DNA of 64,000 nucleotides from a virus. A program made the position numbers and the translations under genes. Where the stretch lies: IMG/VR virus record IMGVR_UViG_3300020204_004241, positions 4,709 through 68,708 of that record; one strand, written 5' to 3'. Of the stretch, positions 6,520 to 28,300 are shown one piece after another; position 1 is the first letter of the stretch, and each line of letters starts with the position of its first letter. The notes beneath the pieces are model-generated. The model had not been told where the DNA came from. It ran no database searches and worked only from the letters and a program-made list of their open reading frames with translations.

Positions 6520-9438
6520 TTATCCTACCGTGATGCCTAGGTCTTTTTGCAAATCGCGGGCCAGTGCATTGGCCTCAATGACCGCAGCCGCCAATCGCTT
6601 CTTGACTGCATCCGGTACCCTGAGGTCAATATCTCTGTTCTGGGTATCAAGCATGTACTCATACAGGGTTCGAACTTTTTGAATCATTGCCGCGTGCGCC
6701 GGGTTCGCCTTCATCGCTGGATTATTTTCTAGCATGTCAATCATTGCGTGCGCTTCGGCAAGGAACTCGTGCGGCGCAGTGTTGGCGTACATGGTAAGGC
6801 CACGTGTTCTTTTGAGTAGTTCATCGTAGGAGTCTCCACGACTCTGCATGTAAATCCCCAGCCCATCCGTTGCTTCGTGCAGCAATGTCTGGAGCCGTTC
6901 GCTGAGGCCTTTTGCGTAATTCTTCAGATCAGGAACAGGCTTGAGTGCTCGTTTGGCTACTTCCTCGTTGACCGATTTACTTGGGGCGCCAAAGCCGGCT
7001 GGGTCGCTCAAAATCATTGCGAACTCTGGACTAAAAGCCATGTCATAAATACTTGGCTCTGTATCGGTGATGTTTTCTCCTGGAATCCTTACAGGCCTAA
7101 GTTTTACTGTTGGCGTAATCAGGGCCAGCAGAGTGTTGGCCATCGATGTCTGGGTGTTTTCGCCCGGGTTGAGTGATGCCGCAGCCCGAGCCATAAGGCT
7201 GACCGGTGCAGCATTGATGGAACCCCTGGGAATATCAGAAATTTTTGTTGCTGGGTCTGTAATTTGTGGGGTTTGCAAAGAATAGATAACTCCCAAAATG
7301 CTGTCTTGAAGTTGTGGGTAATCTTTTGCAATATCCCCGATCAAATCATCGGTGCGTGGATTAATGCCGGCCCGCACTAGCGATGCCTCGGTATCGAGCG
7401 CATGTCCGAATTCGTGAGCAATCGTGCCGACCGCTGTTCCCGGGTCGATTCCATCGTTGCCATCGAGAATTCCAGATTCGGCTAAAACGCGCGGTACGCC
7501 AACCGTGGAGCCAAGACTCAAGCCATACCCAACGGAAATCGGGCTATCATCAACTCGCTGCACGGGCATCACTATTACTGATGCGCCAATATTAATTGGC
7601 GAGTTCGGCCTCGGCCCATTGATTGCGATACGACCCTCAAACTCGGGATGACGCCTAATATTGTCGCGAATAGATGCTACGTGATCCATTAGTGACCTAG
7701 CAACGATCGCCCTGATTTCCCCATCCCTGTCCTCTGGGTTTGCGTTCTTCAAGCGATCAGCCAATGCTGCGAAGTCCAACAATTCCGCTTGATATTTTTT
7801 ATCTTTGAGTCTGTTTTGTTTTGCCTGCTCAATGTCCCGAGACATCAACTGCTTGTAATATTCGGCCTGTTCGAGCCAGCGTCCCCTAAAAGTTTTCATT
7901 AGTTCTTCCGCACTGGTTCGACCATTTAAAGTGCGGCTTCCAGCAACTGCCTTAAAGTCGCCCTTGATTGATACCACATCAAGGAGTGCTTCGCCATACT
8001 GCTCCCAGGCGGCGGCCCATCCGTTTGTGCGGTCCAGTTCGTCAACGTCAAGTTGGATGCCGGCATCACTAAATAGGTCCTTCAATAACTGTCGTTCTTG
8101 CTGTTGTGCTATTTCGGGATCAACCACTAGCGGTCGTGCGGCTGGCTTGGAGATGTCTCCATTTCTAACGCTTTTAACTGACTCGTATTTGTCTGGTGTG
8201 CCAGCGCCGGTAGAAATGACCTGATCGACATCCTGAATATTAGATTCCCTATTGGGAATTGAGTAGTTACGAACTTGGCGCTGAGCACGGTAACGAACCC
8301 CAGACCCCTTCCTGGCATCATTCATGATGTCCTTGAAGGCTGGGGATAGAGCGAAGTGAACTGGCCGCAGGCGATCGGGGTCATCAAAATCTTCGTTCAG
8401 TGCCTCCTCGATCATTTTCCGATATGCCTTGCGCTCTATCAGGCGTAGGGGGAGCGGGCCGCTGAAGTATTTATTAGGGTTTGCATTAATTTGGCGGAGT
8501 ATGCCTAGCAAGAAATTCTGGCGGTCATCGGGTGTCTGCCAGTCATAGTCGTCACGAGCCCAAACTCGTGGGCCATCAGCGAGGGCAGCAGTCAAGTGAA
8601 TGCGACCAAAGCCGTGAGCCGCATACTCAAGTTCGCTAGCCAGGGTGAAAGAACTACCGATTCCAAGACCGCGAGCATCTTCTGAGCCAGACTTCATGTC
8701 TAGTTCTTCGTGATAAATCGCCGGCTCTTCGTTCTCATCGTCACCGAAGGGCTCGATATTGCGGATGAAGTACCCGACCTCTTCGCCAGAGTCGTCGTAG
8801 ATAAGCCCCTCGACAACTATGCGCTGATAGCCGGCATCGGAGTTCTCGGTCGATACGTCAGTCACCTCCGACCTGTATGTACCATCCCTGCCAAGGCCTT
8901 CGTGCTCGAACATCTGGCGAGCAACGGCATCAATAAAATCGATGTCGTAATTTTGAAGGGCATCACGAATCTCTCGCACATTAGGACGCGGGCCCGATGC
9001 GAGACCTCGTTTGCGAGCCGCCTCTCGGCGCCTGTCAAGGCCGTCCTGATGAATCTTGCTCCACGTTTCCGAAAGTTGCTCTGGGACAAAGCCAGGGAAA
9101 TTAATCGAGCCAGGGAAATTAATCGGCGCTGGCCGTTCACGCGGAGTGTTGTCGTAAATAAGGCCGTCGCCGTCGCCGTCCTTGGGCTGGTCTCCTGGGT
9201 CTGGAGCGCCCATCGAGCCAATAGTGCGCAGTTTCTTGATTGCCAAGACTGGCTTATCAATCTTGACTGCCGAAACCTTGATTTCCGAGACTGACTTTTC
9301 AACTTTGACTTCCGAAACAGAGGCTGGTACTTCCTGCTTTGGTTCAGGAGAAGGCTCCACCGCAGGACGGGTAGATTTGCCCATTATCTTGACATCCAAG
9401 ATGGGCAGGTCCACCCGTACTGCGCTGGATTTATCCAT
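6520..9438 (-). CDS. Large polyvalent protein: DGDGDG motif + GNAT acetyltransferase-like domain + zincin metallopeptidase
   Basis: KDGDGDGLIYDNTPRERPA; IYHEEL...ARGLGIGSSF...GFGRIHLTAA..DGPRVWAR (GNAT acetyl-CoA loop R.G.G.G); HEFGH at 7402-7416 and YANTAPHEFLAE. Confidence 0.7.
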   Translation of the reverse strand: MDKSSAVRVDLPILDVKIMGKSTRPAVEPSPEPKQEVPASVSEVKVEKSVSEIKVSAVKIDKPVLAIKKLRTIGSMGAPDPGDQPKDGDGDGLIYDNTPRERPAPINFPGSINFPGFVPEQLSETWSKIHQDGLDRRREAARKRGLASGPRPNVREIRDALQNYDIDFIDAVARQMFEHEGLGRDGTYRSEVTDVSTENSDAGYQRIVVEGLIYDDSGEEVGYFIRNIEPFGDDENEEPAIYHEELDMKSGSEDARGLGIGSSFTLASELEYAAHGFGRIHLTAALADGPRVWARDDYDWQTPDDRQNFLLGILRQINANPNKYFSGPLPLRLIERKAYRKMIEEALNEDFDDPDRLRPVHFALSPAFKDIMNDARKGSGVRYRAQRQVRNYSIPNRESNIQDVDQVISTGAGTPDKYESVKSVRNGDISKPAARPLVVDPEIAQQQERQLLKDLFSDAGIQLDVDELDRTNGWAAAWEQYGEALLDVVSIKGDFKAVAGSRTLNGRTSAEELMKTFRGRWLEQAEYYKQLMSRDIEQAKQNRLKDKKYQAELLDFAALADRLKNANPEDRDGEIRAIVARSLMDHVASIRDNIRRHPEFEGRIAINGPRPNSPINIGASVIVMPVQRVDDSPISVGYGLSLGSTVGVPRVLAESGILDGNDGIDPGTAVGTIAHEFGHALDTEASLVRAGINPRTDDLIGDIAKDYPQLQDSILGVIYSLQTPQITDPATKISDIPRGSINAAPVSLMARAAASLNPGENTQTSMANTLLALITPTVKLRPVRIPGENITDTEPSIYDMAFSPEFAMILSDPAGFGAPSKSVNEEVAKRALKPVPDLKNYAKGLSERLQTLLHEATDGLGIYMQSRGDSYDELLKRTRGLTMYANTAPHEFLAEAHAMIDMLENNPAMKANPAHAAMIQKVRTLYEYMLDTQNRDIDLRVPDAVKKRLAAAVIEANALARDLQKDLGITVG
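9091..9125. repeat. Tandem duplication with 18-nt period (INFPGS-INFPGF)
   Basis: GCCAGGGAAATTAATCG at 9091-9107 and 9109-9125. Confidence 0.85.
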
Positions 9439-9447
9439 CCCAACAGT

Positions 9448-10353
9448 TTAGTCTTTTGCCAGGGTACTTTCAGCAAATGACCTGATAGTTAGTCGGTGAA
9501 GTTCTACAAGTTCATCCATGCTGGTGGAGCCCCATGTATACCCACCAGCGAGAGCAAAGATCGTCGGGACCTGAAGAGCCAGGCACGCCTCGGCTACCAA
9601 TTCCTCACGATAGGCCAGGCTATGGCGTGAATACCCAGCATTGATCGGGTCCATGCCAGCGTTGTAGATGATGAAATCGGGCTGATTCTTGGCAACAATC
9701 CCTAGCGCCTCGGTGATGGCATTCATGTAGTCCCGATCCGAGGCAGAGCCCAGGATGTTGATATTGGACTTGGGGTCTGAAACGGCGTAGGTGTCGAATG
9801 GCGAAACGACAACATCTACCTGGAAGGTTGTATCTGGCAAGAACTTCCGCGTGATGGAGTACGTCCCCCCGCCGGCATGAGCGTCGAAGTCGATGATTGC
9901 GATATTCCGATAGCCAAGATCGGTCGCTCGCATGGCGGCGACTGCCAGCCCATTGAAGGTGCAGAAACCAGCACCACCGCTGTGATCAGCATGGTGTAGC
10001 CCACTGGACAACGAGCCGGCAACTGGCGCCCCGGCGTGAACGGCCTCTACGGCCCCTACAAGGCCCGATGCATGAGCCAGGGCCATCGTGTAGATGCCCG
10101 GGTCCCAAGTGAAGCCCTGCGAGCCACCAAGGGGTCCTCCGGTCTTGACGTCCTTGACGTACTGTTCGGCATGAACGATGCCCACGAGTTCCTCGGCAAT
10201 CGGCTCGTACTCAGTCGGGTCCGTCAGGGTTGCGTTGCTGATGGCGAACTTATCCATCGACTCTGCGATATGGACCGACTTGCGAGTCGTATCGAATGCG
10301 TACTTGCTAGCCGCATATTTACTGTTGTAAAAAATTTTCACTATTTCCTCCAT
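9448..10353 (-). CDS. Zn-dependent histone deacetylase family protein (HDAC/AcuC/AphA-like)
   Basis: GLHHA, GFCTFN, IIDFDAHAGGGT, AGMDP and GGY; the HDAC-fold catalytic and Zn-ligand motifs occur in the expected order. Confidence 0.93.
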   Translation of the reverse strand: MEEIVKIFYNSKYAASKYAFDTTRKSVHIAESMDKFAISNATLTDPTEYEPIAEELVGIVHAEQYVKDVKTGGPLGGSQGFTWDPGIYTMALAHASGLVGAVEAVHAGAPVAGSLSSGLHHADHSGGAGFCTFNGLAVAAMRATDLGYRNIAIIDFDAHAGGGTYSITRKFLPDTTFQVDVVVSPFDTYAVSDPKSNINILGSASDRDYMNAITEALGIVAKNQPDFIIYNAGMDPINAGYSRHSLAYREELVAEACLALQVPTIFALAGGYTWGSTSMDELVELHRLTIRSFAESTLAKD

Positions 10354-10434
10354 TTATGCGCCACCCCTGTTGGGCGGCTATTGCCATTCCGGCTATGTGG
10401 CTAGTCTATACTTGTATTGAGTGAAAGGCAAATT

Positions 10435-10782
10435 ATGGCTTCCCGAATACACGGCACCCTCAGCGCCAACACAGTCGCTACCGCGACAGTAACCGCGCCC
10501 ACCAAGACTCTGAACCTCAATACCATCTGGGGCCCAGACACCAAGGTCGTCAGCGACGGGATCAAGGCCGTTCGGGTCTCGATCTACGCAACTAACGCTG
10601 CTCATACTGGTGCCGGCTTTTTCACCATTGACGGAACAGTCCCCACCGTAAGCGGCAATGATACGTATCTTGCCATCAGCGGCAACCCCGGTAAAGTTGT
10701 TCATGTTGGGGGCCTTGATGAGGTGGTTGTCAAGATCATCAGCCCTGGTGCCTTCGCCTATTCGGTTGAGGTTGTTGACTAA
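10435..10782 (+). CDS. Hypothetical beta-rich protein, possibly virion-associated
   Basis: GAAAGG SD-like sequence before ATG 10435; T/V/G-rich. Confidence 0.6.
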   Translation: MASRIHGTLSANTVATATVTAPTKTLNLNTIWGPDTKVVSDGIKAVRVSIYATNAAHTGAGFFTIDGTVPTVSGNDTYLAISGNPGKVVHVGGLDEVVVKIISPGAFAYSVEVVD

Positions 10783-10855
10783 TAGACTTGAGGGCTATAG
10801 CCCCCCATAAGGCCGTACTCTAAAATTAGAAATCTAACTGAAATGCCCACACGAG

Positions 10856-10884
10856 TTGCGGAGCCGATTCCTGTCCGCTACATT
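10856..10884 (+). promoter_or_regulatory. Putative sigma70/SigA-type promoter
   Basis: TTGCGG (10856-61), 17 nt, TACATT (10879-84), upstream of GGAGG-ATG 10930. Confidence 0.45.
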
Positions 10885-10929
10885 GTCTCTCGCCGGAAAT
10901 AAGCCGGCAACAGACAATACGGAGGAATC

Positions 10930-11172
10930 ATGTCAGCAAGCGAATACCGCACGATCGTGGCAAGCACCAATCGCCGCCGAGGCCGTCCGCGCCTCAGCGA
11001 CGAAGAGCGCGTCATTCGTGCCGAGCAGCGCAAGGAAGCCAATCGCCTCAAGCAAGAGGCTCGTCGCCGCGCAGCAATCGTTCTTCAGCATCGTCACCAG
11101 GACGAGTTTCAGGTTCTCCTGCGGAGCGAGTACGACGCGCTCATCGCAGAAGCGCCCAGCGCTACTGTCTGA
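10930..11172 (+). CDS. Small DNA-binding protein with AT-hook-like motif
   Basis: RRRGRPR followed by a basic helix; strong GGAGG SD. Confidence 0.7.
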   Translation: MSASEYRTIVASTNRRRGRPRLSDEERVIRAEQRKEANRLKQEARRRAAIVLQHRHQDEFQVLLRSEYDALIAEAPSATV

Positions 11173-11464
11173 ACAGACGCCCACCTGATCGCGATGGCGC
11201 CCCTTCGGGGGCGCCATTTGCTTTTCCTGGGGCGGTGCGAGCCTTGCCCTCGGACTTGTTGAACACGGCGTTGATTTCTTCCTTTGTCAACTTGCCATCA
11301 TCCATGTAGGCATTTGCTAGGCCCTCGACCACAAAGGCGACGCCACCAACTCCAGCCATAAGCACGGCCTTCCAGATCGGGATGCCGGCTACAGCACCAG
11401 CGCCGATAACCCCAAGCCCGCTAGAGGCAAACTTTGCCAAAATGCGAAGAATGATGTGGTTCAC
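11162..11464 (-). CDS. Small membrane protein (holin-like)
   Basis: Two hydrophobic segments, then DDGKLTKEEIN. Confidence 0.55.
   Translation of the reverse strand: MNHIILRILAKFASSGLGVIGAGAVAGIPIWKAVLMAGVGGVAFVVEGLANAYMDDGKLTKEEINAVFNKSEGKARTAPGKANGAPEGAPSRSGGRLFRQ
11194..11225 (+). terminator. Intrinsic terminator-like hairpin
   Basis: Perfect 10-bp stem ATGGCGCCCC-TTCG-GGGGCGCCAT with cUUCGg loop, then TTGCTTTT; lies at the convergence of two genes. Confidence 0.75.
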
Positions 11465-11498
11465 CTATACATGATAGTTCATCAAGTACTCTTTCTAG
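11465..11498. promoter_or_regulatory. Back-to-back leaderless -10 elements
   Basis: Minus strand: TATCAT (11471-76), 6 nt, GTG 11464. Plus strand: TACTCT (11487-92), 6 nt, ATG 11499. Confidence 0.55.
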
Positions 11499-11792
11499 AT
11501 GAACCCCGACAACAGGACAATATACGGAAATATCGAACTAGTTGGTTCGTATCGCGAGCCATGCATTGTTTGTGGCCACCCGACTGGCGACTGCGCTCCG
11601 AGTGATGATAACCATTTCACCGTGGCAGGAGCGGGGGTGTTTCCATCATTGAACCACGAAGAAATTTTCGTCGTAAAAGAGGACATTTTTGAAGAACGCC
11701 AGATTACTCCGTTCACTCGTTCCCGAGTGCTCGTGCACCCGGCGGGCAAAACGATGCCGATTAGCGAAGCCAAGAAATTGGGTCTCTGCTAG
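11499..11792 (+). CDS. Hypothetical protein with CxxCxHxxxxC motif
   Basis: PCIVCGHPTGDC. Confidence 0.65.
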   Translation: MNPDNRTIYGNIELVGSYREPCIVCGHPTGDCAPSDDNHFTVAGAGVFPSLNHEEIFVVKEDIFEERQITPFTRSRVLVHPAGKTMPISEAKKLGLC

Positions 11793-11857
11793 ACGATTTC
11801 AGTATTGCCCCCATGATGTATCTTTGATGTTCCACCCAATTACGCGACGGAGTTTGT

Positions 11858-13783
11858 ATGTCATTGTCCCGGGAATTTGTTGATTCATATCGCACCAAGC
11901 AGGCACCATGGGGTTTCAGCGGATTGGGCGAGATTGTTTACCTTCGTACCTATAGCCGGCCAATGGAGGGTCTCGGGCGAAACGAGACGTGGCCGGAGAC
12001 TCTCCGGCGCGTAGTGAATGGAGCGCTTGAAATCGGCACCGAATGGACCGACGAAGAGGCCGAGAAGATTTTCGATCACATGTTCAATTTGCGCTGCTCC
12101 GTGTCGGGGCGCGCGCTGTGGCAACTTGGGACTGATCTGGTCCGCAAGTTCAATGCGGCCAGCCTCAATAACTGTTACTTCGTCAATGTCGAGACGGTAG
12201 ACGACTTCGAGTTTTTGTTTGACTACCTCATGCTCGGTGGCGGTGTCGGATTTTCGGTGGAGCGCTCGAAGATTCATGAGTTGCCCAAGATCAAGGCCGG
12301 CGTCACCATCACCCATGAGCGCAGCAATGACGCTGACATTATTGTCCCCGACAGTCGCGGTGGATGGCGGCGGCTTCTTCACTCGGTGCTCAAGTCATAC
12401 TTTTACACCGGCAAGTCGTTCACCTACTCGACCATGCTCATTCGTGAGTTCGGTGCTCCCCTCAAGACGTTCGGTGGAACTGCATCAGGGCCTGGTGCTT
12501 TGATTGAGGGCATCAATGACATCTGCAAGGTCATGGACAACCGGGTCGGCAAGAAACTCCGCTCGGTAGACGTCCTTGACATTTGCAACATCATCGGCCG
12601 AATTGTTGTCTCGGGTTCAAGCCGGCGCTCGGCTCAGATCGCCATTGGTGATCCCGACGACATTCTGTTCCTTCGCGCCAAGAACTGGGGAACCGGCAAT
12701 GTGCCCGGCTGGCGAGCCAACTCCAACAACTCAATCTACGCCGATGCGTGGGAAGAAATTCAGCCCGAACTGTGGAAGGGCTACGACGGCTCTGGTGAGC
12801 CATACGGCTTGCTCAACCGCAAACTCGCCCGAAGCATGGGGCGTGTCGGTGAGAAAAAGTCTGACCCCAGCATCGAGGGATTCAACCCCTGTGCCGAAAT
12901 CGCACTTGCCGATGGTGAGTCCTGCAACCTCGCTACGCTGTTCCTCCCGAACATCCGAAGCGAAAAGGAAATGCACGAGGTTTCAGTGCTTCTGTACAAG
13001 TTGCAGAAGGCGATCACCGGCATGGACTATCCATATGAAAAGACCACTCGCACCGTTCACAAGAACCGACGCCTTGGTCAGTCGGTGACCGGAATCCTCC
13101 AGGCCAGCGAAGAGCAGTTGTCGTGGCTCGACAGCACCTACCGCAACCTCGTTGACTTTGACGTCGCTTTCTCAAAGGAGCGTGGCATCCCGGCCTCGAT
13201 TCGACTGACAACCGTTCAGCCGTCGGGAACACTCTCGCTCCTGCCCGGAGTCACTCCCGGGATTCATCCGGCCTACGCGCGCTATTACATCCGCCGTGTA
13301 CGCTTCAGCGCTGCCGATCCGCTGGTGGAGGCGTGCCGGCGACGTGGCTACAAGGTCGTGCCGGAGATTCTTATCGATGGCCGCGAAGACCACACCAAGT
13401 GGGTCGTGGAGTTCCCCTGTAAGTCCCCGGAGAACGCCGTCCTTGCCAAGGAGATGACAGCAGTTCAGCAACTGGAGTGGGTCAAGAAGATGCAGGTCCA
13501 GTGGGCCGACAACGCAGTTTCGGTGACGGTCTATTACAAGAAGGAAGAACTTACCGAGATCAAGTCCTGGCTTGAGGCGAACTACACCAACAGCGTCAAG
13601 AGCGTAAGTTTCCTTCTGCACAGCGACCACAACTTCCCCCTTCCCCCATACGAGGAAATCACGGAAGAGGCATACGACAAGTTGGTCGCAAAGGTCGACG
13701 ACTCGGCGCCATTGGTCCTGGATGCCACCGGTTCATCCCTCGATGATGCTGACTGCGCTACGGGAGCCTGCCCGATCCGATGA
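11858..13783 (+). CDS. nrdJ: Class II adenosylcobalamin-dependent ribonucleotide reductase (monomeric RTPR type)
   Basis: RTYSR, SGRALW, LNNC, GGGVG, NPCAEI catalytic loop, CNL, TTVQPSGT, C-terminal CATGACPIR redox pair. Confidence 0.95.
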   Translation: MSLSREFVDSYRTKQAPWGFSGLGEIVYLRTYSRPMEGLGRNETWPETLRRVVNGALEIGTEWTDEEAEKIFDHMFNLRCSVSGRALWQLGTDLVRKFNAASLNNCYFVNVETVDDFEFLFDYLMLGGGVGFSVERSKIHELPKIKAGVTITHERSNDADIIVPDSRGGWRRLLHSVLKSYFYTGKSFTYSTMLIREFGAPLKTFGGTASGPGALIEGINDICKVMDNRVGKKLRSVDVLDICNIIGRIVVSGSSRRSAQIAIGDPDDILFLRAKNWGTGNVPGWRANSNNSIYADAWEEIQPELWKGYDGSGEPYGLLNRKLARSMGRVGEKKSDPSIEGFNPCAEIALADGESCNLATLFLPNIRSEKEMHEVSVLLYKLQKAITGMDYPYEKTTRTVHKNRRLGQSVTGILQASEEQLSWLDSTYRNLVDFDVAFSKERGIPASIRLTTVQPSGTLSLLPGVTPGIHPAYARYYIRRVRFSAADPLVEACRRRGYKVVPEILIDGREDHTKWVVEFPCKSPENAVLAKEMTAVQQLEWVKKMQVQWADNAVSVTVYYKKEELTEIKSWLEANYTNSVKSVSFLLHSDHNFPLPPYEEITEEAYDKLVAKVDDSAPLVLDATGSSLDDADCATGACPIR

Positions 13784-14052
13784 GTCTCGAAGGAGTAACC
13801 CCAGAAACGATCGCTGACACGATCAATGTGTTCGTCGAGAACAAGATGCTCATCCCCGTGGGACACGGATTTTGCTGGACATGCGAAAACGAAAAGCCGG
13901 TATACGACGTCTCGACGGATCACTTCCCGTCACAGGAGCCCAAGTGCGGCGACTGCATTATCAATACGGCAATGGCTGCGATGAAGTTGCCAGGATTTAT
14001 CGCCAAGGTGGAGCACGAGTATAAGCGACTGTATGGCGACGAGACTAAGTGA
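13780..14052 (+). CDS. Putative Zn-finger protein
   Basis: CWTC...CGDC; ATGA overlap. Confidence 0.65.
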   Translation: MSLEGVTPETIADTINVFVENKMLIPVGHGFCWTCENEKPVYDVSTDHFPSQEPKCGDCIINTAMAAMKLPGFIAKVEHEYKRLYGDETK

Positions 14053-14407
14053 TCTCAGGCGGCTAGGCGCTGACAAGTTCCTCGACCATGCTCAATTTCT
14101 GCTGGTCAAGTTTGGCCATTGCAAGGGCTTGATGCGAGCACCATCCGGGGCGCTTAGTTGTACGGCTGCCCTCTATGCGGGATGCGGGGCAAAACCAGAC
14201 AAGATTCCCTGGGACGCTGATAGCGCTGAAGTTGCCGGCGTTACCGCTAAGAACTGCGCTGTTGCCGATGAGTTGCTATTGTTTCTGGAAGGTCTTGCAA
14301 GAACGGACTGCCTAGAAGAGTGGAATGATCGAGATGGCATCGAAATCGGACAGTGCCTGGGTCTGCTTCAAAAAGCAGCGGACATGATCCGTATCAGCCT
14401 CGACTAA
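14033..14407 (+). CDS. Hypothetical phage protein
   Basis: G.CKG...SC..AL...EWND...L.KAA pattern recalled from small actinophage proteins (DUF6197-like, unverified). Confidence 0.55.
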   Translation: MATRLSDLRRLGADKFLDHAQFLLVKFGHCKGLMRAPSGALSCTAALYAGCGAKPDKIPWDADSAEVAGVTAKNCAVADELLLFLEGLARTDCLEEWNDRDGIEIGQCLGLLQKAADMIRISLD

Positions 14408-14976
14408 TTGGTGCAGGCAATAGCAAACTGCCAGTAGTACTTCCCGACGACCGGCCAAGTGATCCCGGTGCCCTTGTCATGCCAAGAGGTTCCTAATGGA
14501 TTGTTGGGAATTATTTCATACATATCAGCAAGATTTGTGAATTTGCATGACTCAAGCAGTTTCCATACTCGTTCATGGTGACAGTTCCAGTGGTGTGCTG
14601 CACCATCCCACCAAGACGCATTTGAGGTATCCCTGATGTCCTGGTGTTCGAGGGCGCTTAGCACCATTTCCCACGGTTCCTGTTTCTTTGCCCATCTCTC
14701 AATGGTCTTGAGAACATCTGGGCCAACTACTAGCAGTCGAGCGCCGGGTTTGCTGATGCGTTTGATTTCTTCAAGAAAGGCCGGCACCTCTGGCCAACTA
14801 ATGTGCTCAAGTACGTGCCCCATATATACCGCATCAAAGGTGTCGTCCTCGAATGGGTATGGCTCGCCGGGCTTTACAAGCACGTCAGGCTTGGTGAGTT
14901 CGTTCTCCCAGACATCAGTGTTTACCCAGCCCTTGGCGTAGTGGGTTCCACATCCGGCATTTAGATATTTGGCCAT
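14404..14976 (-). CDS. Class I SAM-dependent methyltransferase
   Basis: LNAGCG, PFEDDTFDAVY..HVLEH, RISKPGARL. Confidence 0.88.
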   Translation of the reverse strand: MAKYLNAGCGTHYAKGWVNTDVWENELTKPDVLVKPGEPYPFEDDTFDAVYMGHVLEHISWPEVPAFLEEIKRISKPGARLLVVGPDVLKTIERWAKKQEPWEMVLSALEHQDIRDTSNASWWDGAAHHWNCHHERVWKLLESCKFTNLADMYEIIPNNPLGTSWHDKGTGITWPVVGKYYWQFAIACTN

Positions 14977-15007
14977 TCCGTGAAGACTAGCAGCACACTC
15001 ACCGGAG

Positions 15008-15039
15008 AAAAGGAAAAGCCCCCGAGTTTCCCCGGGGGC
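15008..15039 (-). terminator. Intrinsic terminator after the major capsid gene
   Basis: Minus strand GCCCCCGGG-GAAA-CTCGGGGGC then TTTTCCTTTT. Confidence 0.85.
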
Positions 15040-15062
15040 CAGTCCTTTGAGCCTTTGCAGGA

Positions 15063-16987: not shown

Positions 16988-17002
16988 GCAGTTCTCCTGG
17001 CC

Positions 17003-20000: not shown

Positions 20001-21703
20001 CGTGGCATTCCAGACTTCTGGGAGCGCGAAGACGAACCTCCGCCACGACGGTAAACAGACTTGAGGGCCCTGAGGTTGACGTACGACCAGTTCGGGTTGC
20101 CCGCCTTTTGCATGCGCTCGTTGTGCAACTTGACCTTGTCACTGAGCGAGCGCAGGACTGCTTCATTCAGTTCTACTGAAATGGCATCAGAAGTAGGTAA
20201 GGCGTTCTTCTTGCGATTCAACTTGCTGACAGCAATGGCTACGCGGCGCACAAAGTTCTTGTCGCGCTCGGCGTTACGCCGGCGAGCCAATGGACTAGAG
20301 CCCATCCGCAGGCGGTAGTCGGATTCATTAGTGCATGGCATCCAGGCTTCTCCACCATCGTCTGAGCGATAACGGCGAATTCCAATGCAGCCGAGTTGGC
20401 GCGACCGAACGCGGGCCGAATCTGGCGACGTGAACACATCTGGGTCAGTCTTGCGGATTCGGCGCTCAGCCTTTTCTTCGACTGGCTTTTCCTCAGTTAT
20501 CGGGCCACCGACAACCCATGCCCGGCAGGTGCGCTTCGCGGCACACTTGAAGTCGAAGGCTTCGCAGTAGCCAAGTTCGCCCACGGCATCAATGGCATCC
20601 CACTCATCGGTACGCTCACCACCGGTGACGCCTTGCTCGATGCAGTCCTTCATCTTGTCTGTGACAATGAACAGTGCGCAGTTCCCGCACCGCTGCTTCT
20701 TGGCGGTAGCAACATCAACATCCCACTCATCAGCAAGTTTTGACCAATAGGCGGTGTTCTTTTCATTCGGATTCAGTGGGCCGTAAGACGCACTGTCGAT
20801 CGCCTTTTTGCGGTTGCGCAGGTTGACGGCAATGTCTTTGGTGGCTGTCGGGCAGGCAGACTCAGCCTTTTCGTTTTGCTCGATCCAGTCGATAAAGTCC
20901 GACAACTGCATCTCGGTGAGGTTTTCTACGAAATCCTCGTACTCACCGTCGTCGGCCTTGCCAGAGCGGTACTTTCCGCCACGCTTTTTGTATTCGCGGA
21001 CCAGCCAGGCGTTTGCGTAGGCAGATGGGTAGACATCAAACTTTCGTTTCGCCTCCTCCTTGACCCGGGCATATAGTTCCGGGTTAGTGGGGATGGCGGC
21101 CTTCTCCTCAAGGGCAGATTCGTCGTCCTTCTTTTTGGTTGGAACATAGATCGGCTTTTTGTCAACCCGCGTCTCGGTCGACTCTGCTCGACGCTTTCTG
21201 GTGACCGCGTCACGAATTTCTTCTGCCGTCATTGAACGCGCTCGTGAAGCCGGCACACACTTCGGGTACTTACCCTTGTCGGCATCGTCCCGCCCGCATG
21301 GCTCGAATCCGCCGCCCTTCTTCGGGCGCGAGATGTCTACCCAGCGTTCCTTGAACCATTGAGTGAGCGACTTTTGCAAAGCCGCCGAGACAAGACCTCC
21401 ATCTGCGAGTGTGTCAATGCCAAGGATGGGCCTTTCGCTAAGTTGCTCCCAGCCAATTGGCTTCTTTCCGCGACGCTTCCGCTTACGAATTTCAGCCGAC
21501 TTACCCTGCGAGCACGGAAGACACTCATCGTCTTTTTCATCTAGGGAATTGATTTGGTCGAGGATGCGCGTTAGTTCTTCGTGTGATTCACAGGGCATCC
21601 ATGCGCCATCGACTTCATGGGCACCGCTGCATCCAAGCCGGCGTGACATGCGCATAGCCTGAGCCCTGTTTGGGCGCAGAACATCATCGTCTTCGTTGTT
21701 CAT
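17003..21703 (-). CDS. 1566-aa multimodule head-region protein (small Cys-rich modules plus C-terminal DUF7178/glycosylase-like domain)
   Basis: Two LGCxG...WMPC repeats; WFKERWVD..CGR..YPKCVP; YPSAYAN; RCGNC...GYC..FDFKCAAKRTC; VYRRG..WAMGRVNAF; RCPP..GGQF; WY...ISPQ..W..N...KVRSFY...TNDTWM...QSVLW. Confidence 0.75.
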   Translation of the reverse strand: MNNEDDDVLRPNRAQAMRMSRRLGCSGAHEVDGAWMPCESHEELTRILDQINSLDEKDDECLPCSQGKSAEIRKRKRRGKKPIGWEQLSERPILGIDTLADGGLVSAALQKSLTQWFKERWVDISRPKKGGGFEPCGRDDADKGKYPKCVPASRARSMTAEEIRDAVTRKRRAESTETRVDKKPIYVPTKKKDDESALEEKAAIPTNPELYARVKEEAKRKFDVYPSAYANAWLVREYKKRGGKYRSGKADDGEYEDFVENLTEMQLSDFIDWIEQNEKAESACPTATKDIAVNLRNRKKAIDSASYGPLNPNEKNTAYWSKLADEWDVDVATAKKQRCGNCALFIVTDKMKDCIEQGVTGGERTDEWDAIDAVGELGYCEAFDFKCAAKRTCRAWVVGGPITEEKPVEEKAERRIRKTDPDVFTSPDSARVRSRQLGCIGIRRYRSDDGGEAWMPCTNESDYRLRMGSSPLARRRNAERDKNFVRRVAIAVSKLNRKKNALPTSDAISVELNEAVLRSLSDKVKLHNERMQKAGNPNWSYVNLRALKSVYRRGGGSSSRSQKSGMPRNQWAMGRVNAFLQILSNGQPSNPSYVTDNDLLPEGHPWKKREKSLIHRVMMPGVVDNLKGFGEYWSEATKSFDQHLVEFKAAKRRGGAKLRTISQEIAKRGGALVDEDGMLRCPPTTINGGQFTNWKLEGCNDPTGAVRVIAQRVSQDAFDAIPETRRITNAQAAQIARQGVVASRLTEGGRSSIGYRKDVFRKINPRTRTADRLEAIKKFDTASRKALSSRLGDRDLSSVTTDELDQILALTNAKGQSVWSKLQTAKLLKLRQEIDDLESSMRSIQIMGAGLDNTYAVPRNVAVTFDADDIFDENDALTLDGEEGVFRWLSDNIDEITSVKSGSIGTVINAVYDDATGTVTFDIADVYDKSEQSLDSVTNIGRGRGVASVLDMDRLADRDMNGAFIDTGAEQAGSTYSPSRPTTDIRVRRTRKTDPSGQVSRLAGQDKVGGRNYTPGQKAAMVNAMIGGVPGLRHVEPVPILKAGDKDYSADQLKQIDDAVMQINDYIKDNMLRLLAQYDSPADKEFRARAKHWYPVANEYIGSIAAETDIHPSLVAAAMATISPQLPWDSNVVLGEHMAKMIADPDFEVSDEVAKAMAQGIMKARASGGGKNWNQVTNSSSAAANELRRRLEKLGKQRNQGSKALQKRREGTIAALKYQLKSLENDMEFFRSIAGLDADQLAQQFTGKRIQGMSNFEVAVAHRAHASVNGMKYIDGSEGPLMELDLNPDPATGKANPIRGKKKAAGAYLVNDIKAIQMLRDGDRLAALAGDVDSPEHAAFMSSMISNLLGDESKVRSFYNNLNNPMDSYFRDITNDTWMAVAGFALPAISQKTRRNDGAFNETDVLFNSLESLGHGRGYGLVSAAIMNVAEEWKQLTGEDFTQHPRAMQSVLWELARREWLPGNKTEALAASRELADAISSGRSEFSLDDRHEMLGYLRTATYGKAEFGNWGGGIVEFLKARGVDTDITKMSKMSVQDRIQMILSVMKDSRGRPLFKGPIPIVEKV

Positions 21704-21996
21704 TTGCTGCCCTTACGCTTGCGCGGTGCCTTTGTTTTCCCTGGATCAGTATTGTCCTCTGGGATACCCAGAACTCCATCGTCCTTCAGTTCTTGATACA
21801 TCTCCCGGAACTTCTCACGATTTTTTGGCTGCGAGCAGTACCAGATTGTTGACCAGTAAATGGCATCCCGTTCAGCGCCAGTTTCATCGCTGGCCAGGGT
21901 TTCTGCGTATTGCACAATTCGGCTGCGTTCTTCCCCGGAATCGACGTATTTGTAAAAGGCGTTTCGGATGTTTTGCAGTTGCTTCTCATCAAACAT
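21700..21996 (-). CDS. Hypothetical protein
   Basis: Overlaps both neighbouring genes (translational coupling). Confidence 0.65.
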   Translation of the reverse strand: MFDEKQLQNIRNAFYKYVDSGEERSRIVQYAETLASDETGAERDAIYWSTIWYCSQPKNREKFREMYQELKDDGVLGIPEDNTDPGKTKAPRKRKGSK

Positions 21997-22300
21997 TTTT
22001 GAGCCACCTGTTTGTCATTCTCTCAACATCCTCAGCCCTTGGGTCGGCGCTATTTGGGTCCCATAGTGAAGGCGCGAGATTCTCATTAATAGCAGGCTTC
22101 CAGTATGGGTTCTGGGAGATGGCGATATGTAGTGGAAGCGTCAAGCGCTTTTTGACGCGATTCTTTTTTGCCCCAGGGCTGGGGTCATACCGATAAATGA
22201 ATCCCATTGCCGGCCCATTGAGGTAGCCAGTCATGTATAACTCTTCATATTGACCAAGCGAATTAGGGTCAGTTCGGGCGATCAGAACTTCTTTTCTCAC
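21989..22300 (-). CDS. Hypothetical protein following the 2603-aa gene
   Basis: GTGA overlap with the giant gene's stop. Confidence 0.65.
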   Translation of the reverse strand: MRKEVLIARTDPNSLGQYEELYMTGYLNGPAMGFIYRYDPSPGAKKNRVKKRLTLPLHIAISQNPYWKPAINENLAPSLWDPNSADPRAEDVERMTNRWLKNV

Positions 22301-25300
22301 GGCTGGGCCTCGGTTTGCATTCTAGCGATGATCGCATCTACGCTATCAACAATTCGCTGGGCCTGAGCGCGACGATCTTCGGTGCTTTCGACATTTAGCA
22401 TGTCCTGAATGTAGGAGTATAGCCTACCAAGAGAGTAGTCATTATCCCATTCTTTTTCAGGGTCCCCGCCGGTCTCGGCATTCATTGTGTCTCCGAAGAA
22501 TTCCTTGACCGCACGGGCTACGGCTGAGCCGGCCAATAGTTCCGTGTCGTAGGTATTCGGATCAAGGGACGGGAGCATCTCGAATACTCGGTCCAGGGCA
22601 GGACTCTCGTATTCGTTGTCAACATTGAATGGCTTGCGGTAGTTAGCAAAGTTGCTCTCAACCTCTTCCAATCCGTCACGATCAAGTGTCACGGCCGGAC
22701 GAACTGGTCCGATCCGTGGTGTGCCGGCTTCTTCCTGTCGCGCTCTACCACCGACGCGACTACGTCGGCGTGCCGCGCTTCGTGCTGCACGTTCTGCTCG
22801 CCCTGCCTCGAACTCAGCAATTGCTTCCTCGTTCCGCTGCTGCTCTTCTTCGCTAACAACCGCCTGAGACCCGATCCCGATTTCCTCCTGCCGCTGGTTC
22901 AAATCATCTTCGTCCCCAGTTGCAGGTCCCTCAACCTGTGCTTCGCGACGGTTTCGCGGACGAGGAGAGCGCGGTGTCGCGGGCCTTCGTCGGGTTCGTG
23001 GTGCTGGGGTTTCTTCTTCGTCGGCGTCTAGGTTTTCTGATTCAGCAAGAATCGCATCATCGTTCGGATCATCTGGGTCTGGATTGCTTCGTCTACGTGC
23101 TCGCTCCTCTGCCTGTGCGGCCCTTGTTCGTGCAGCCTCAGCAGCCCTATTCATTTCTGCACTGTTTGGCGCAAGTTCATCAACACGGTTACGGGCAGTC
23201 GGATAGGCGAGCAATCGATCGGGTGGGATCGGCAAGCCAGTTGGAGTGAGTGTTTCTGACTGCTGTGTACCAAACACTGTAGACGCAAATCCTTCTGACG
23301 AGCCATACTTGCCGTCATAAATGCGCTTCAGAGCGCTGTCAATTTCCTGCTGCTCTAATTCAATTCCAATAACGCGCACTCTGGCTTGCTCAATGTCAGC
23401 AGCGTCGGTGTCGCCAAGTTCATCATCGCTACTAAGGACGGTGCCCCGGTTCTCGCTAAGATCATCAACTTCTCGTCGTGCCATTTCAAGTCGTGCATCA
23501 TTGGCGGTTCGTCGGTCACGAAGAGCGGCCTCGGCCTCAACAAGAAACGCAGCGGCCTCTGCTTCCGTGCCGGGGTTTTCCGGATCGATATACCATTCGC
23601 CTGGGTCACGGGTGAATCGTTGCCCAGTTGGGCCAACTGCTTCTTCCCCGCCCACGGCGCGGCGAGGCCTGTAGTTGGCATTTATTCTAGGAGTACCACT
23701 GGGGCCAGAGTACTTTTGGGCGGGGGCCTGTGGAACTTCATCTATAGCCTCAGACCCAAGAGGTGCTTCGGGCGCTTCGCCGCGCTCTGTTGCGAGGGCG
23801 TCCGCAAGACCCGTGACGTTTTCGGCAGTTGCTACCGCGTCTGCCGCTGCGTCAACTTCTTCAACAACCTCGGGCGTTGTATCGCCAATTACTTCTGGGG
23901 TTGCCTCTTCGGCTGATGGGGCCTGTTCTGGCTCACCGACAATACGGAGCGGAATGCCACGATTCTCCAGGATTCTAGTAACTTCATCGCGATAACTCTG
24001 CGGATGGAGTTCCCATGTCATGCGGTCAACTTCAGCAGCCTCAATGTCGCTTGGCTCAAGTGGACTCTCTGGGATAAATGTATTTCTAAAGTCACCATCT
24101 GGGAATTGTCGCGAATCGCGGAAGCCTTGCCAGTTGACTGTTTCCGGTAGGAAGTATCCGTTTTGCTGCAATGGAAAGATAGTCCCACGTGTGTTGCCAA
24201 AGTTCATCACCGGCTGTCCCGACACGTCGTTCTTTAGCACAAGGCGAATGCCACGATTTTCTGTTCCGTCTGGCGTAATTCTGGCCAACTGCGTCTCTAC
24301 CGAGCCGGCGATGAACGAGTTTGACAATAGCGGGCCATTTAAACCGGCTCCCCCGAAGTTGGGTGCCCTCAGTTGGTCTAAGTTGCGAATGTCAACCGTT
24401 GGCCGGCCACGCAATGACTGCAAAGCCTCAGCAACGTCGTTGGGACCAAGACCAGAGAAGTTGCGAAGATTAAGTTTAAATTCATAAAGAACTTCAGCAA
24501 CAGTATCTCCAACTCGCTCAGCATCCATAACTGCCATCAGGCCTTCACCAGTTAGGTTTGGGGGGGATGCCAGTCTGATGTCTGCTTCAACCGCTTCAGA
24601 AATTCTGCGGGCCAGGTTCGTCCCAGTAAGTTCAAAAGGAAGATCGGTGTTACTTAAATCGACGCGGAGACTTTGCAAAAGTTCCTCTAGCGCCGGGGTT
24701 TGGCTAGAGCGCGTCAGCGCATAGAAGGGCTCAAGATTATCGTCAACGCGGCCGGCATCTCGCATGTTCGGAGGTAGTGATCGAAGATCAGACACGATGC
24801 CATTGGCCAAGTCAATCGCGCTTGAGTTTTCAAGATTATCTGCGAAGCCACGATCTGGGTCAACAGATGGAAGTGCATTGAGTGCCTGTGTTGCCCCCTG
24901 CGCCCGTCGTGATATTGGCTTAGCGCGAACAGCCAGAGGCTTGCCGAGAACCTCTTCAAGGTCCATTCTTCCACTAAACGAGAGTTTCTTGAACCAGCGC
25001 TTGATTTCGGCCTCTCGCCGCCCGCGTTCAACCGGGTCAGAAATTGCTGCTGCGTCATCGATCGCCATAATTGCTTCGATGTGCGACGGGGTCGAGGGGT
25101 CAATTGGCTGATTTTCGTAAGCGGAGTTGCCTGTCGCTGTATCTAATTCATCAACGATCCACTGCCAAGCATTCGCTTGTTCCTGGTTGCGAATTAGGGA
25201 TGGGCGTCCTCTTTGCCAATTTATGAGTTCGTCAGTCATCGCAATTTTAAGTTCAGTTACCTGGTATATTCTCGTAACCCTAAATCCGAGGCGAGGCCAA

Positions 25301-28300
25301 ACGTATGGGCCGTCTGATGTTGCGCCCACTCCAACCTTGTTATGACCAGCCAATTGTAAGTGGCGTAAGGCATGAGTATTAAATACCGTGGCGACGCCGG
25401 CGCCTTTATAGGTTTCGCCCTGGTCTTCCAAGTACATGTTAGCGTGTTCAATATAACTCGGTTGACCATCAACATCACGGGTAATGTAACGAGAGAACCT
25501 TCCGAGTGTTCCTTCTTCCCCGGTTGTCAGATTTCTAAATCTTACTACTCCGGAACAGTTGGAATTGTAAACACTAACGCCGTCCGTGAAGACTTCGATC
25601 TCTTCGATTCGCGGGCTGCCGTCGCTATTGAATAGTTTTTCGCCAGTTGATCGATCTCGCCTGTGAACTTTCATCTTCACTGGCGGCATTGTGTAGGCCA
25701 ACTCGCGAAGTTCTCTGTCGCGGATGTCTATTTGATCATCGATGTCACCACGCTCTAGGTCGTCGGTCGCCCCGCGACGAGCATCAACAAGCCCACGAAT
25801 TTCTGCTACAAGTTGCGCTGCCCTGGAGTCTGGGTCTTCCCACGGAAGAGGTTCGGTTTCGCCCAATCCGTATGCTTGACGCAACTGCGTATCTGTTTGC
25901 TTACGACGGCGCAGGTGTGTTTCTTCTACAAGTGAGCGGATTCTTTCCTCAACATTATCGGAAAACGGCTGAACGTCAAATTGTGAAGGGCTCGTAATTG
26001 TGCGTTCGCCGCTGTCGTGCAGGGATGGTGTGTTGCCAGAAAATTCGGGATTATCCAAATCCCGTACCTGGGTGGCGTCCATCAAACCAGAAGCCGGCGC
26101 CGAGTCGCGCAGGCCACGCCCCTCTTCCGTCGCCCTAATTAGCGCAAGGCGCTGGGCAACCCACTCTCGGGCCTCGAAGTCGTGCATGTCGGCAACCCTG
26201 CTGCGTCCCTGGCTAGTCGGACCAACATTGGGCGAGGACACTTCAACATCACGGATGAATCCATCAGGGTCGTCGATGAGTGCTCGGACAGCGGCATTGA
26301 CGTTTTTGTCCAGTTGACGTGCGGTGTTCGCTAGTTCGATAGCCAGTCCATCGTCATACCCAGTTTCGGACATGCGCTGGAAAATTGGCGCATAAAACTG
26401 ATCAAAGAAGTTGCTCTCTAGTTGCCCTTCTGTTGGATCATAGTAATACAGCGCATTGCTGTCAAGAACACCTTCTGGCACGCGCGGACGTCCGTCAAAG
26501 TATGTGCTGTCGAAAATGTTGCGTAGGCGCCTAGCAACCAGGTCCTTCACGTCATCGGGGGTGAAGTCTCCTGATTGGGCCAAATTGAGAAGTGCATTAG
26601 CATCATCCCTAAGCATTTCAATCTGGCCCGGGAACAGGCTTGACATGTCCTCGTAGGTGCGGTCAATCTCGCTTAGTTCGCGGCGGGCAAAATCTTCCAA
26701 TTGATCTGCGTCAAGGTCTGGGCCGACTTCAATAAGGGCCTGCACAAAGACCATCCGCTGCTGGGTAAGCGTTCTGTCCCCAAACCCTGGGTGCTCTGGG
26801 TTTTCGAACGTAAGCCACGGATGCCTGTTTAGGACGTCAGTTCTTACAGCATCTCTAATAAACTCTTGAGCGCTAGTATCGGTTTCATTTGGCGTAATAT
26901 CATCTACTTCAAAACGACCTTCGAAGAATGAGGGTTCGAGCCTACGAGCAGTGTAGTAATTCGCCAGATCGACATCGTCTTTCACTTGGCCTCTAACCAG
27001 CGCATCCAGTTTGTCCATCGATGTTTCTTCTGAGATTTCCCCCCTGTCGAATGCCTCAGCCAGTGCCTCGGCACGCTGCATTCTGTACTCTCGGCGCTCT
27101 GCATGAACTTCGCTAATATTCCGGTCACCTGGTTCAAACTGGCGCCACGCCCGTGACGATGCAACATAATCCTTGTCTTCTGGATCGCCTTCCAGAGCCA
27201 GGAATCCCAATGGCCTTGTCTGCAGTTCGGCAGTTTTTTCGTCGACACTGTCGGCAAATTCCCGTCGGCCGAAAAGGCCGAACTGGCCTTCGCGACGAAT
27301 GCGATCAACAACAACTCCGACAGCCTCTGCTGCCGCATCTTCATCAGGAGTTCCTACTGCCTTGTCGGCTCGCCGCACGGCGGCATCAAATTCTTTTTCA
27401 AGTTGCCGGCGCAGGTCTGTTCCGACAATTCCCTCTTCTTGAACAATTTCTTCGGCAACTCGAATGCGCTCGTCTGCCTCTACGCCAGCCTGAGTGGTTG
27501 GGTTGGTTACTGGCGGGCTAATATCATCCGCCTCTGGGCGCGCCGGGATGACGTCACTTGAAGTGCCATCCTCGTTATCAAGCAAGCGATCAGAAACGGT
27601 ACCACGGTTTCGGAAGGTTGTATATGTTTCGCCTTCCACCGGGCGGAAACCAGATGGAATCTTTTCTTGAGGCACTGAGATGAACTCGTCGAAGTCGGCT
27701 TCATTTGCCGGCGCCTTGTATGGCCGGTTGCCGCTGTTATTGCCACCAAATCGTCCTGGAGGGAATCGTGATACGGAGCCGGTCGTACGTTCGCCCGGAC
27801 CAATCGTTCGACGAGTATTGGCGTTTTCAATCATGCGAAGCCCGCGCCACGCAAGTTCACGGCGCTCCAGCGACTCATTCTCGTCTACCATGATGTTGTA
27901 CAAGTTCTCGAACATGTCGTCGAGCGTCTTGTCATCAATGACATCCCAGTTGCGGTAGCCGCCGTAGCCAAACTCATCGCGAATGCGTCGACCGACTCGT
28001 TGCCAGCGCGGTTGGGGGAGTTCACCGCCACGTCGATAATCCCTGAGGTACTCAAGGAGTTCCCCGACAGTCATCTCTGTTTCTTCGTCCGGGAAGCCTT
28101 CCTCCCGTCCGGTTTCGTCATCACGTCTTGCGGTTCCACGTGAACGACCGAATGAACCCGGCCGCCCTCGTCCGCCAGCCTCAGTAGTGTCTCCAGGGGT
28201 CCTAGGACGCTCGGCGCCAGCCGGACTTGTTGGGGCCGGCTCATCTCCGCGACGGCGACGGCGCTTGGGCTTTGCCTCGCCCTCTGGTGCTCCCTCTGGC

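Follow-up and report, generated by a model that had tools for sequence, protein, structure and literature searches.

Introduction

Polyvalent proteins of phages carry GNAT, ParB and HExxH zincin peptidase domains and are predicted to be packaged in the capsid and injected, and solo GNATs are described among the late structural genes of mycobacteriophages (PMC5512222). Head-packaged effectors of this kind have been predicted at scale and are scarcely studied experimentally. Solved enzymes of the HDAC family include chrHDAC11-1/A of Chlamydomonas (9RJE; PMC13325672) and VcHdaH of Vibrio cholerae (9GKV/9GKY; Graf et al. 2024, PMC11532494), the latter assigned to class IV clade A (PMC13325672); bacterial class IV relatives are still without a physiological substrate. 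The two protein types meet in a stretch of 64,000 nucleotides (nt), here called the window, which spans bases 4709-68708 of the 68.7-kb virus record IMGVR_UViG_3300020204_004241 (IMG/VR) and comes from an uncultured lake-water tailed phage. In the window, a gene of the HDAC family lies directly upstream of a gene for a 972-amino-acid (aa) protein with a GNAT-fold module, and a second, related module resides in a giant protein of 2603 aa.

The linkage of this type of HDAC gene to the GNAT module is phage-specific, recurrent and far above background. A first-pass annotation of the window had read the gene set as an acetylation writer and eraser. The part of that reading that stands is that the genes are real and their linkage recurrent; by contrast, the pairing proves facultative and traces to few independent events (about three). 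A writer/eraser coupling of the GNAT and the HDAC is plausible and unproven, and is held here at a little under an even chance.

The HDAC-family gene

The HDAC-family gene (P0001; 9448-10353, minus strand) encodes a predicted Zn-dependent amidohydrolase of 301 aa (Pfam PF00850). Its TAA stop codon is followed by nine nucleotides (ACTGTTGGG; 9439-9447, minus strand) and then by the ATG of the 972-aa gene (P0002; 6520-9438, minus strand). Read directly, the open reading frames (ORFs) and the spacer agree with the first-pass annotation, which had placed the HDAC gene 9 nt upstream of the 972-aa gene on the same strand. The corresponding gaps in related viral loci are 19 nt (L004), 20 nt (L003) and 15 nt (L030).

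The match of the protein to PF00850 scores 100.1 bits (cut-off 27.9; E 1.9e-28) and covers residues 28-277 and profile positions 10-287 of 298. At least 2989 clusters match the protein at E ≤ 1e-10 in a word-indexed protein search in which 8000 candidates were scored. The His-His dyad, the Asp/His/Asp zinc ligands and the catalytic Tyr of the GGY motif are present and align with the motifs of 9RJE and 9GKV. In a clade alignment of 36 sequences (44-95% identity to the query), H120, H121, D155, D157, H159, D235 and G270-G271-Y272 are invariant, and W83-D84 is conserved. The catalytic residue set is complete as judged from sequence, and the HH, DxH, GxD and GGY motifs, which had been described as intact on first inspection, are so in all 36 clade members.

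Among solved structures, the best matches are 9RJE (E 2.6e-16) and 9GKV/9GKY (E 6.2e-16), followed by 5ZMP, a 'lysine deacylase' (E 1.3e-13), and 5JI5; these are short enzymes of 305-320 aa. Solved class IV-type enzymes rank ahead of the HDAH and APAH entries, while HDAC6 entries interleave via a short stretch. The phage HDAC is labelled class IV (HDAC11-like) on these sequence matches to solved structures. The residue that precedes the HH dyad is Thr or Ser in clade A and Phe or Tyr in clade B (PMC13325672). In the phage HDAC clade this residue is a nearly invariant Leu, which fits neither signature; thus, the phage HDAC is left unplaced between the subclades. For the phage enzyme, 'deacylase' is a safer name than 'deacetylase'.

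Two GNAT-fold modules of one family

Searches of Pfam (E ≤ 0.1), PHROGs and NCBIfam returned no GNAT match for the 972-aa protein or for the 2603-aa giant (P0003; 22297-30108, minus strand), and BLASTP aligns the two proteins over only 81 aa, with 27% identity (E 0.005). When residues 150-420 of the 972-aa protein served as query in an exhaustive phmmer search, 176 cluster representatives were retrieved at E ≤ 0.001, including 41 at E ≤ 1e-10. Among 156 tabulated members (150 listed phmmer matches and six further homologues), 42 are of at least 1000 aa and 13 of at least 2000 aa. The window domain and the homologue at viral locus L003 were aligned with 54 of the 150 listed phmmer matches, mostly proteins of <450 aa, to give an alignment of 56 sequences (A1). 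A few A1 members match curated acetyltransferase families at E ≤ 0.01, namely Acetyltransf_1 (4/56; best E 1.1e-5), Acetyltransf_7 (2/56) and Acetyltransf_CG (1/56).

The profile built from A1 matches 16 PDB sequences at E ≤ 1, of which 14 are acetyltransferases (best E 0.0022) that align on the Q/R-x-x-G-x-G loop between beta4 and alpha3 (motif A). Within the window, the profile matches the module of the 972-aa protein (E 2e-72) and, with the giant left out of the alignment, residues ~1529-1682 of the giant (25063-25524, minus strand; E 1.5e-15), and no other window ORF. An AlphaFold2 model of residues 150-420 of the 972-aa protein, computed from A1, has a mean predicted local distance difference test score (pLDDT) of 89.2 and a predicted template modelling score of 0.82. 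All nine Foldseek matches of this model in the PDB at E ≤ 0.001 are GNAT acetyltransferases (probability 1.00), including nourseothricin acetyltransferase, NatD and a MAK3 homologue/Naa50, and the later rows are nearly all acetyltransferases. In the 972-aa protein, motif A is RGLGIG (residue 256); in the giant, it takes the variant form KGAGVA (residue 1568), in which Lys replaces Gln/Arg. The first Gly of the motif is invariant in all 56 A1 members. Profile, model, Foldseek matches and motif A together identify both domains as GNAT-fold modules of one family, in line with the first-pass annotation, which had called the two GNAT domains similar. Since a match to a curated family is wanting in the window proteins, membership in the GNAT superfamily is assigned by fold and motif. 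The acyl-CoA pyrophosphate loop is kept in both modules, which are putative acyltransferases.

The conserved unit of this family is ~300 aa long. It opens with a DGDGDG motif and a Pro-rich stretch, which a helical linker connects to the GNAT core, and closes with a helical extension that holds a conserved 'DP.RLTPY.FTLF' stretch. The unit is found solo, in proteins of 315-400 aa, and within far larger proteins. In the 972-aa protein, the conserved module matched by the A1 profile covers residues ~53-421 (8176-9282, minus strand), with the DGDGDG motif at residues 87-92 (9163-9180, minus strand) and the GNAT-fold core at about residues 150-390 (8269-8991, minus strand). Neither window module has a tblastn match in 50,697 GenBank phage records.

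Recurrence of the HDAC-GNAT linkage

Viral HDAC loci were gathered from IMG/VR by a single-protein scan (6 loci) and a profile scan (28 loci), which together gave 29 distinct loci, or 30 with the window, and GNAT modules were detected at these loci by hmmsearch over all six-frame ORFs. A module lies within 10 kb of the HDAC gene at 12 of the 29 IMG/VR loci (L003, L004, L015-L018, L024, L025 and L030-L033), or 13/30 with the window. It is directly downstream on the same strand at six of them (L003, L004, L015, L016, L017 and L030), or 7/30 with the window. Three more HDAC contigs bear the module elsewhere, in giants of 2434-2500 aa, bringing the count at the contig level to 16/30. The adjacent pairs are diverged, with 41-49% identity between the HDACs and 26-50% between the modules. 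Cellular loci differ sharply: at the best 80 of at least 588 confirmed HDAC-clade loci in GTDB (L037-L116), no module was found within 10 kb of the HDAC gene. The co-occurrence check that accompanied the first-pass annotation is, thus, positive in phages.

The densest HDAC-GNAT cluster seen is that of L024 (9818-20876 of a 116.7-kb contig). Here a 359-aa HDAC is followed by 720 nt and two small ORFs and then by three large ORFs, of 563 aa, 1616 aa and, open-ended, at least 721 aa, which together hold four GNAT modules; between the first two of them is a 168-aa ORF that matches no module.

Carrier proteins and predicted head packaging

By analogy, both GNAT carriers resemble a known type of protein, the polyvalent effectors predicted to be packaged in the head. 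The gene of the giant is located between the portal/prohead-protease genes and the major capsid gene, and the gene of the 972-aa protein, a candidate polyvalent head-packaged effector, lies downstream of the capsid gene on the same strand. Gene position and the literature on polyvalent proteins suggest that the carriers are packaged, and their delivery by the virion is plausible.

No family is assigned to the 972-aa protein by Pfam, PHROG or NCBIfam, and its full-length homologues (932-947 aa) come from metagenomes only. Residues 675-679 form an HEFGH motif (7402-7416, minus strand), which could mark a zincin metallopeptidase. The motif and a downstream EFxAEAH helix ('YA.T...EF.AEAH', residue ~889) are kept in the consensus of nine homologues. 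The C-terminal half (residues 560-972; 6523-7761, minus strand) may correspond to the zincin peptidase hub domain of polyvalent proteins. Searches with this half returned nothing meaningful among PDB sequences, no Foldseek match at E ≤ 0.001 and, in the ESM Atlas, weak leads to minor capsid protein 2 and M10/M64 peptidases with template modelling scores below 0.4; its AlphaFold2 model has a pLDDT of 53.9. The C-terminal half may be a zincin on the strength of the HEFGH motif only.

In the giant, Pfam, PHROG and NCBIfam recognise no further domain. Its N-terminal part contains a Pro/Thr-rich tandem repeat of TPTPGTRPTVPTTPTPG-like units (residues ~200-330; window ~29100-29500, minus strand), with a G+C content of up to 0.61.

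The DGDGDG motif and Pro-rich stretch precede the GNAT module also in L003, L004, L015-L017 and L030. The translation of the L004 homologue shows a ParB-like DGHHR stretch that is flanked by two DGDGDG motifs and precedes the GNAT module, and a 494-aa ORF of the same contig (16122-17606, minus strand) matches the N-terminal DGDGDG part only (E 1e-4). The DGDGDG and Pro-rich stretch may be a capsid-targeting or processing signal that is common to different cargo domains.

Proposed mechanism of reversible acylation

If the two activities are coupled, the GNAT carriers would be made late in infection as polyvalent proteins, packed into the head and injected with the DNA. The injected GNAT would then move an acyl group from acyl-CoA onto a host amine, most likely of a protein. 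For the HDAC, which has no N-terminal extension, co-transcription with the 972-aa gene late in infection is probable, and its substrate would be the same amide that the GNAT forms. The HDAC could thereby keep the producing cell and the phage proteins free of the mark while new effector builds up; alternatively, it could reset the early mark. Acyl groups other than acetyl are possible, since the closest HDAC relatives bind C6-C10 acyl chains. This complete circuit, encoded by the phage, written by capsid-delivered GNATs and erased by a late, co-transcribed HDAC of host origin, is tentative and on balance doubtful in its entirety. A predicted complex of the GNAT module and the HDAC scored 0.00 with controls not run, and it weighs neither for nor against binding.

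The same acyl chains bear on a cooperative exchange, in which the HDAC would free a host amine (e.g., from a cell-envelope or cofactor amide) that the GNAT re-acylates, or the reverse, so that the two enzymes act sequentially and not as antagonists. The one support that genome comparison lends to such an exchange is the linkage, and the foot pockets of the closest HDAC relatives are reported to hold C6-C10 acids, not acetate. The two enzymes would differ in timing, as the GNAT would be injected but the HDAC would not, and the facultative pairing argues against an obligate two-step pathway; an exchange of this kind is very unlikely.

Evidence against coupling and alternative explanations

Several sets of observations, concerning gene content, ancestry and substrate, weigh against a coupling of writer and eraser. 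First, the linkage is facultative both ways, in that neither gene needs the other. Whole-contig searches found no module in four near-complete HDAC-bearing phage records: E3 and a 37-kb record that has terminal repeats, both 100% complete, a provirus of 147 kb (96%) and a record of 619 kb (92%). A fifth contig that is module-free by the same search is a 35%-complete fragment. In a tree of the 30 viral HDACs, the fragment clusters with the four complete genomes that are without the module, and the group is supported. In favour of coupling, the window belongs to a group of 23 rows, in which every contig longer than 25 kb has the module and all nine module-free loci sit on contigs of ≤25 kb. Nine of the 30 loci, on contigs of ≤25 kb, are uninformative on module presence.

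The picture from the GNAT side is drawn from a sample of Actinomycetota only, in which 4 of 401 genomes have the module (E ≤ 1e-5). In three of the four, the module is part of giant ORFs (5506, 5849 and 4292 aa, holding 3, 5 and 1 copies, respectively), and in none of these three is the HDAC clade linked to the module, being on another contig in one genome and absent from two. These giants (G013:C2:986329-988875, G124:C5:243346-250722 and G152:C1:4622454-4623038; one of the genomes is a Mycobacterium sp.) are probably polyvalent proteins of conjugative elements or prophages. GNAT-centred scans of viral and metagenome contigs with a single-domain query, a degenerate DNA pattern and a 3-row alignment found no relative. 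Unlike the obligate co-occurrence of effector and antagonist in toxin-antitoxin and toxin-immunity pairs, each of the two genes occurs alone.

Second, the module-positive loci are for the most part not independent of one another. The flanks of 16 of the 29 loci (L004, L007, L014-L022, L025-L028 and L030) encode relatives of the core proteins of the window, with identities of 72-77% for the capsid, 76-82% for the terminase, 56-61% for the portal and 67-83% for the reductase, and most module-positive loci share these core genes. Within this lineage, the HDAC sits near the capsid and reductase genes or near the portal and terminase genes, and several sublineages have the HDAC without an adjacent GNAT gene. 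The solo-type GNAT gene has been seen in the lineage only directly after the HDAC. This pattern fits one ancestral pair with later losses. L024 and L031-L033 have flanks without similarity to the window core genes, yet they too combine the HDAC with modules. In view of the shared core genes, the adjacency may reflect one ancestral event plus L024 and L031-L033. As the positives are mostly of one lineage, the independent events are few, with about three contexts counted.

Third, the class IV label itself and the properties of the nearest relatives bear on the substrate. chrHDAC11-1/A and VcHdaH are reported to have none or very weak activity on acyl-lysine peptides, and non-peptide substrates are proposed for the clade A class IV HDACs in the same source (PMC13325672). 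An ABC-transporter permease is encoded beside the cellular HDAC homologue at 19 of the best 80 loci, with BPD_transp_2 permeases at 12 and BPD_transp_1 permeases at 7, which hints at small-molecule substrates for the cellular enzymes. An HD-domain (HD_4) protein adjoins the HDAC at 8 of the 80 loci; the permease and HD_4 neighbours may bear on the substrate of bacterial class IV-like HDACs in general. Given the weak acyl-lysine activity of the nearest relatives, an eraser of host-protein acetylation is not the default reading of the phage HDAC, and this element of the first-pass annotation is weakened by the poor peptide activity of the relatives and by the permease neighbours alike.

The HDAC of the phage appears to be host-derived. 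HDAC-fold enzymes are not commonly described in phages, and tblastn with the HDAC was positive in 7 of 50,697 GenBank phage records; Rhodococcus phage E3 accounts for two of the seven with one and the same genome. Isolates that bear the HDAC include, besides E3, Microbacterium phage Magritte. The cellular clade is found in Acidimicrobiia, Nocardiaceae, Planctomycetota, Chloroflexota, Gemmatimonadota and beta-proteobacteria. On a tree of 110 rows (30 viral and 80 cellular; quick search, LG+G4), viral and cellular labels interleave with 12 changes, at least six of which well-supported branches make unavoidable. The partner of E3 is a Rhodococcus genome, that of L035 a Mycobacterium and that of L036 Rhodococcoides (values of 95, 92 and 96, respectively, in the Shimodaira-Hasegawa-like approximate likelihood ratio test, SH-aLRT), and the rows nearest to the window HDAC are loci of Acidimicrobiia metagenome-assembled genomes. 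Some short contigs of such assembled genomes in the tree are possibly misbinned phage; L042, a 7.2-kb contig that groups with viral rows, bears a cellular-type ABC permease gene. The interleaving suggests repeated capture of host HDAC genes by actinobacterial phages.

Repeated capture is among the points that favour independent functions of the two genes. A captured host HDAC would hydrolyse a small N-acyl compound (an acetylpolyamine or N-acyl amino acid, for instance, or some other imported amide) to a metabolic or packaging benefit, and its adjacency to the GNAT gene would arise only because, in one lineage, the late operon ends in an accessory slot that both genes occupy. The BPD_transp_2 and BPD_transp_1 permeases beside the cellular homologues, the non-peptide substrates proposed for clade A, the HDAC standing alone in four near-complete phage genomes and the GNAT giants without an HDAC are all consistent with this explanation. 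It sits less well with the contrast between viral and cellular loci (13/30 versus 0/80 with a module within 10 kb), with the combination of HDAC and GNAT in L024 and L031-L033, whose flanks lack similarity to the window core genes, and with gaps of 9-20 nt, which fit the co-translation of a functional pair. Independent functions are the chief rival to coupling and a substantial possibility, short of probable.

The recurrent capture of HDACs by actinobacterial phages also suggests a recurrent benefit that is independent of the GNAT module, as would be expected if the HDAC served in counter-defence. In that case, the HDAC would strip acyl marks that the host places on phage or host proteins during infection, or undo a GNAT-type toxin of the host, and the phage GNAT would have unrelated targets. 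A 2026 preprint that describes extensive lysine acetylation of phage proteins during infection (10.64898/2026.04.27.721073) lends some support. The nearest solved relatives of the HDAC, by contrast, are poor protein deacylases, and none of the PADLOC defence families matches the HDAC, the 972-aa protein or the giant. A role in counter-defence would, in addition, leave the phage-specific linkage to the GNAT unexplained, and it is unlikely.

Genomic context of the window

The record from which the window is taken has a CheckV completeness of about 46%, so that the full genome would be close to 150 kb. An actinobacterium of the freshwater Acidimicrobiia is the probable host. At least 22 DNA runs from lake water contain the stretch 6520-10704, which includes the HDAC-GNAT pair; many of these runs are possibly its source, and no RNA run is listed among the sequencing runs that contain it. 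Megablast of positions 6000-26000 against the 50,697 GenBank phage records gave no match. A scan of 5400-12000 for promoters and terminators yielded no excess of sites over shuffled sequence.

A leftward structural block is headed by the portal gene (36186-38453, minus strand; phrog_2662, E 7.8e-98), beside which the large terminase gene (38591-40024, plus strand; PHROGs/Pfam) is found. The portal gene is followed by the gene of a 719-aa protein (33944-36103, minus strand) with an N-terminal prohead serine protease domain (Peptidase_S78, E 9.6e-14), which occupies residues 20-172; the remaining ~540 aa have weak matches to head-protein PHROGs only. ORFs of 580, 694, 2603 and 1566 aa, and small ones of 103 and 98 aa, lie between the protease gene and the major capsid protein gene (15063-16358, minus strand; phrog_10, E 3.2e-65), which is on the same strand as the HDAC/GNAT pair. 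The 1566-aa protein (17003-21703, minus strand), in which DUF3721, DUF5872 and DUF7178 are the only domains, has relatives of 47-50% identity that are encoded next to the capsid gene of related contigs and is a candidate further head or effector protein. Another such candidate is a 1018-aa protein (2339-5395, plus strand) with DUF3626 as its sole domain. Directly downstream of the capsid gene is a gene for a 190-aa S-adenosylmethionine-dependent methyltransferase (14404-14976, minus strand). A ribonucleotide reductase cassette (11858-14407, plus strand), which includes the reductase gene itself (11858-13783, plus strand; phrog_367, E 4.2e-144), interrupts the leftward late block between the capsid and HDAC genes. 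The same arrangement of the cassette is seen in L004, L015, L017, L018, L025 and L030.

Novelty and implications

In a full-text literature search, no publication turned up that treats an HDAC-family enzyme of a phage or such an enzyme paired with GNAT effectors, and the link between the HDAC and the GNAT effectors appears to be undescribed so far. GNATs in polyvalent phage proteins are already known (PMC5512222), and the HDAC annotation in phage E3 is years old. If the proposed reversible circuit were true, it would be the first writer/eraser pair for protein or amine acylation in a bacterial virus, and it would supply a natural substrate for an enigmatic clade of class IV HDACs. Should the product of the GNAT be the substrate of the HDAC, phages would control an acyl mark, whether post-translational or on a small molecule, in both directions during infection. 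The HDAC-before-GNAT pair provides a concrete, testable hypothesis for polyvalent effectors and class IV HDACs alike. If the two genes are instead unrelated in function, the data still point to repeated capture of HDAC11-like enzymes by actinobacterial phages and still define a widespread, unannotated GNAT module (176 cluster representatives) that family libraries miss.

Comparison with known systems

The closest phage-borne counterpart of the HDAC is gp202 of Rhodococcus phage E3 (HM114277.1), which is annotated as a 'putative histone deacetylase protein' and falls in the clade of the window HDAC, with 42.6% identity across 95% of the query. The E3 gene is located just upstream of tail-fibre and structural genes. 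E3 differs in having no GNAT module in its complete 142.6-kb genome and in that its HDAC groups with a Rhodococcus chromosomal copy; a literature search found no functional study of gp202.

VcHdaH and chrHDAC11-1/A are similar to the phage HDAC in length (318-319 versus 301 aa) and have the same catalytic residues. A Gly/Ser-rich stretch before the HH dyad replaces the RPP foot-pocket motif in enzymes of this kind, reading SSGLHH in the phage HDAC, SGGYHH in VcHdaH and GGGFHH in HDAC11. Unlike the phage enzyme, the two solved enzymes are cellular and without linkage to GNAT effectors, and they are distant from it (63.4 and 62.2 bits). The use of an HDAC-fold enzyme by an invader against its host has a parallel in LphD of Legionella (PMC11532494). 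LphD, however, falls in cluster 3 of Graf et al., acts on eukaryotic histones and is secreted by a bacterium, whereas the phage HDAC is cluster-5-like and has no sign of delivery.

Phage GNATs that modify host proteins are likewise on record. Rac of the phiKMV-like phages acetylates the alpha subunit of RNA polymerase (PMC7824862), and an anti-CRISPR protein evades host defence by acetylating Cas12a (PMC13728456). Both are small early proteins that are unpaired with a deacylase, in contrast to the head-packaged giants proposed here. The nearest likeness is to the polyvalent proteins of Iyer, Burroughs, Anand, de Souza and Aravind (2017, PMC5512222), which are large multidomain proteins likewise encoded with portal and terminase genes; the words 'deacetylase' and 'HDAC' have 0 occurrences in the main text of that paper. 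The resemblance is seen in the GNAT and HEFGH motif of the 972-aa protein, in the ParB-like DGHHR stretch and GNAT of the L004 homologue, and in the tandem GNAT modules of the actinobacterial ORFs of 4292-5849 aa.

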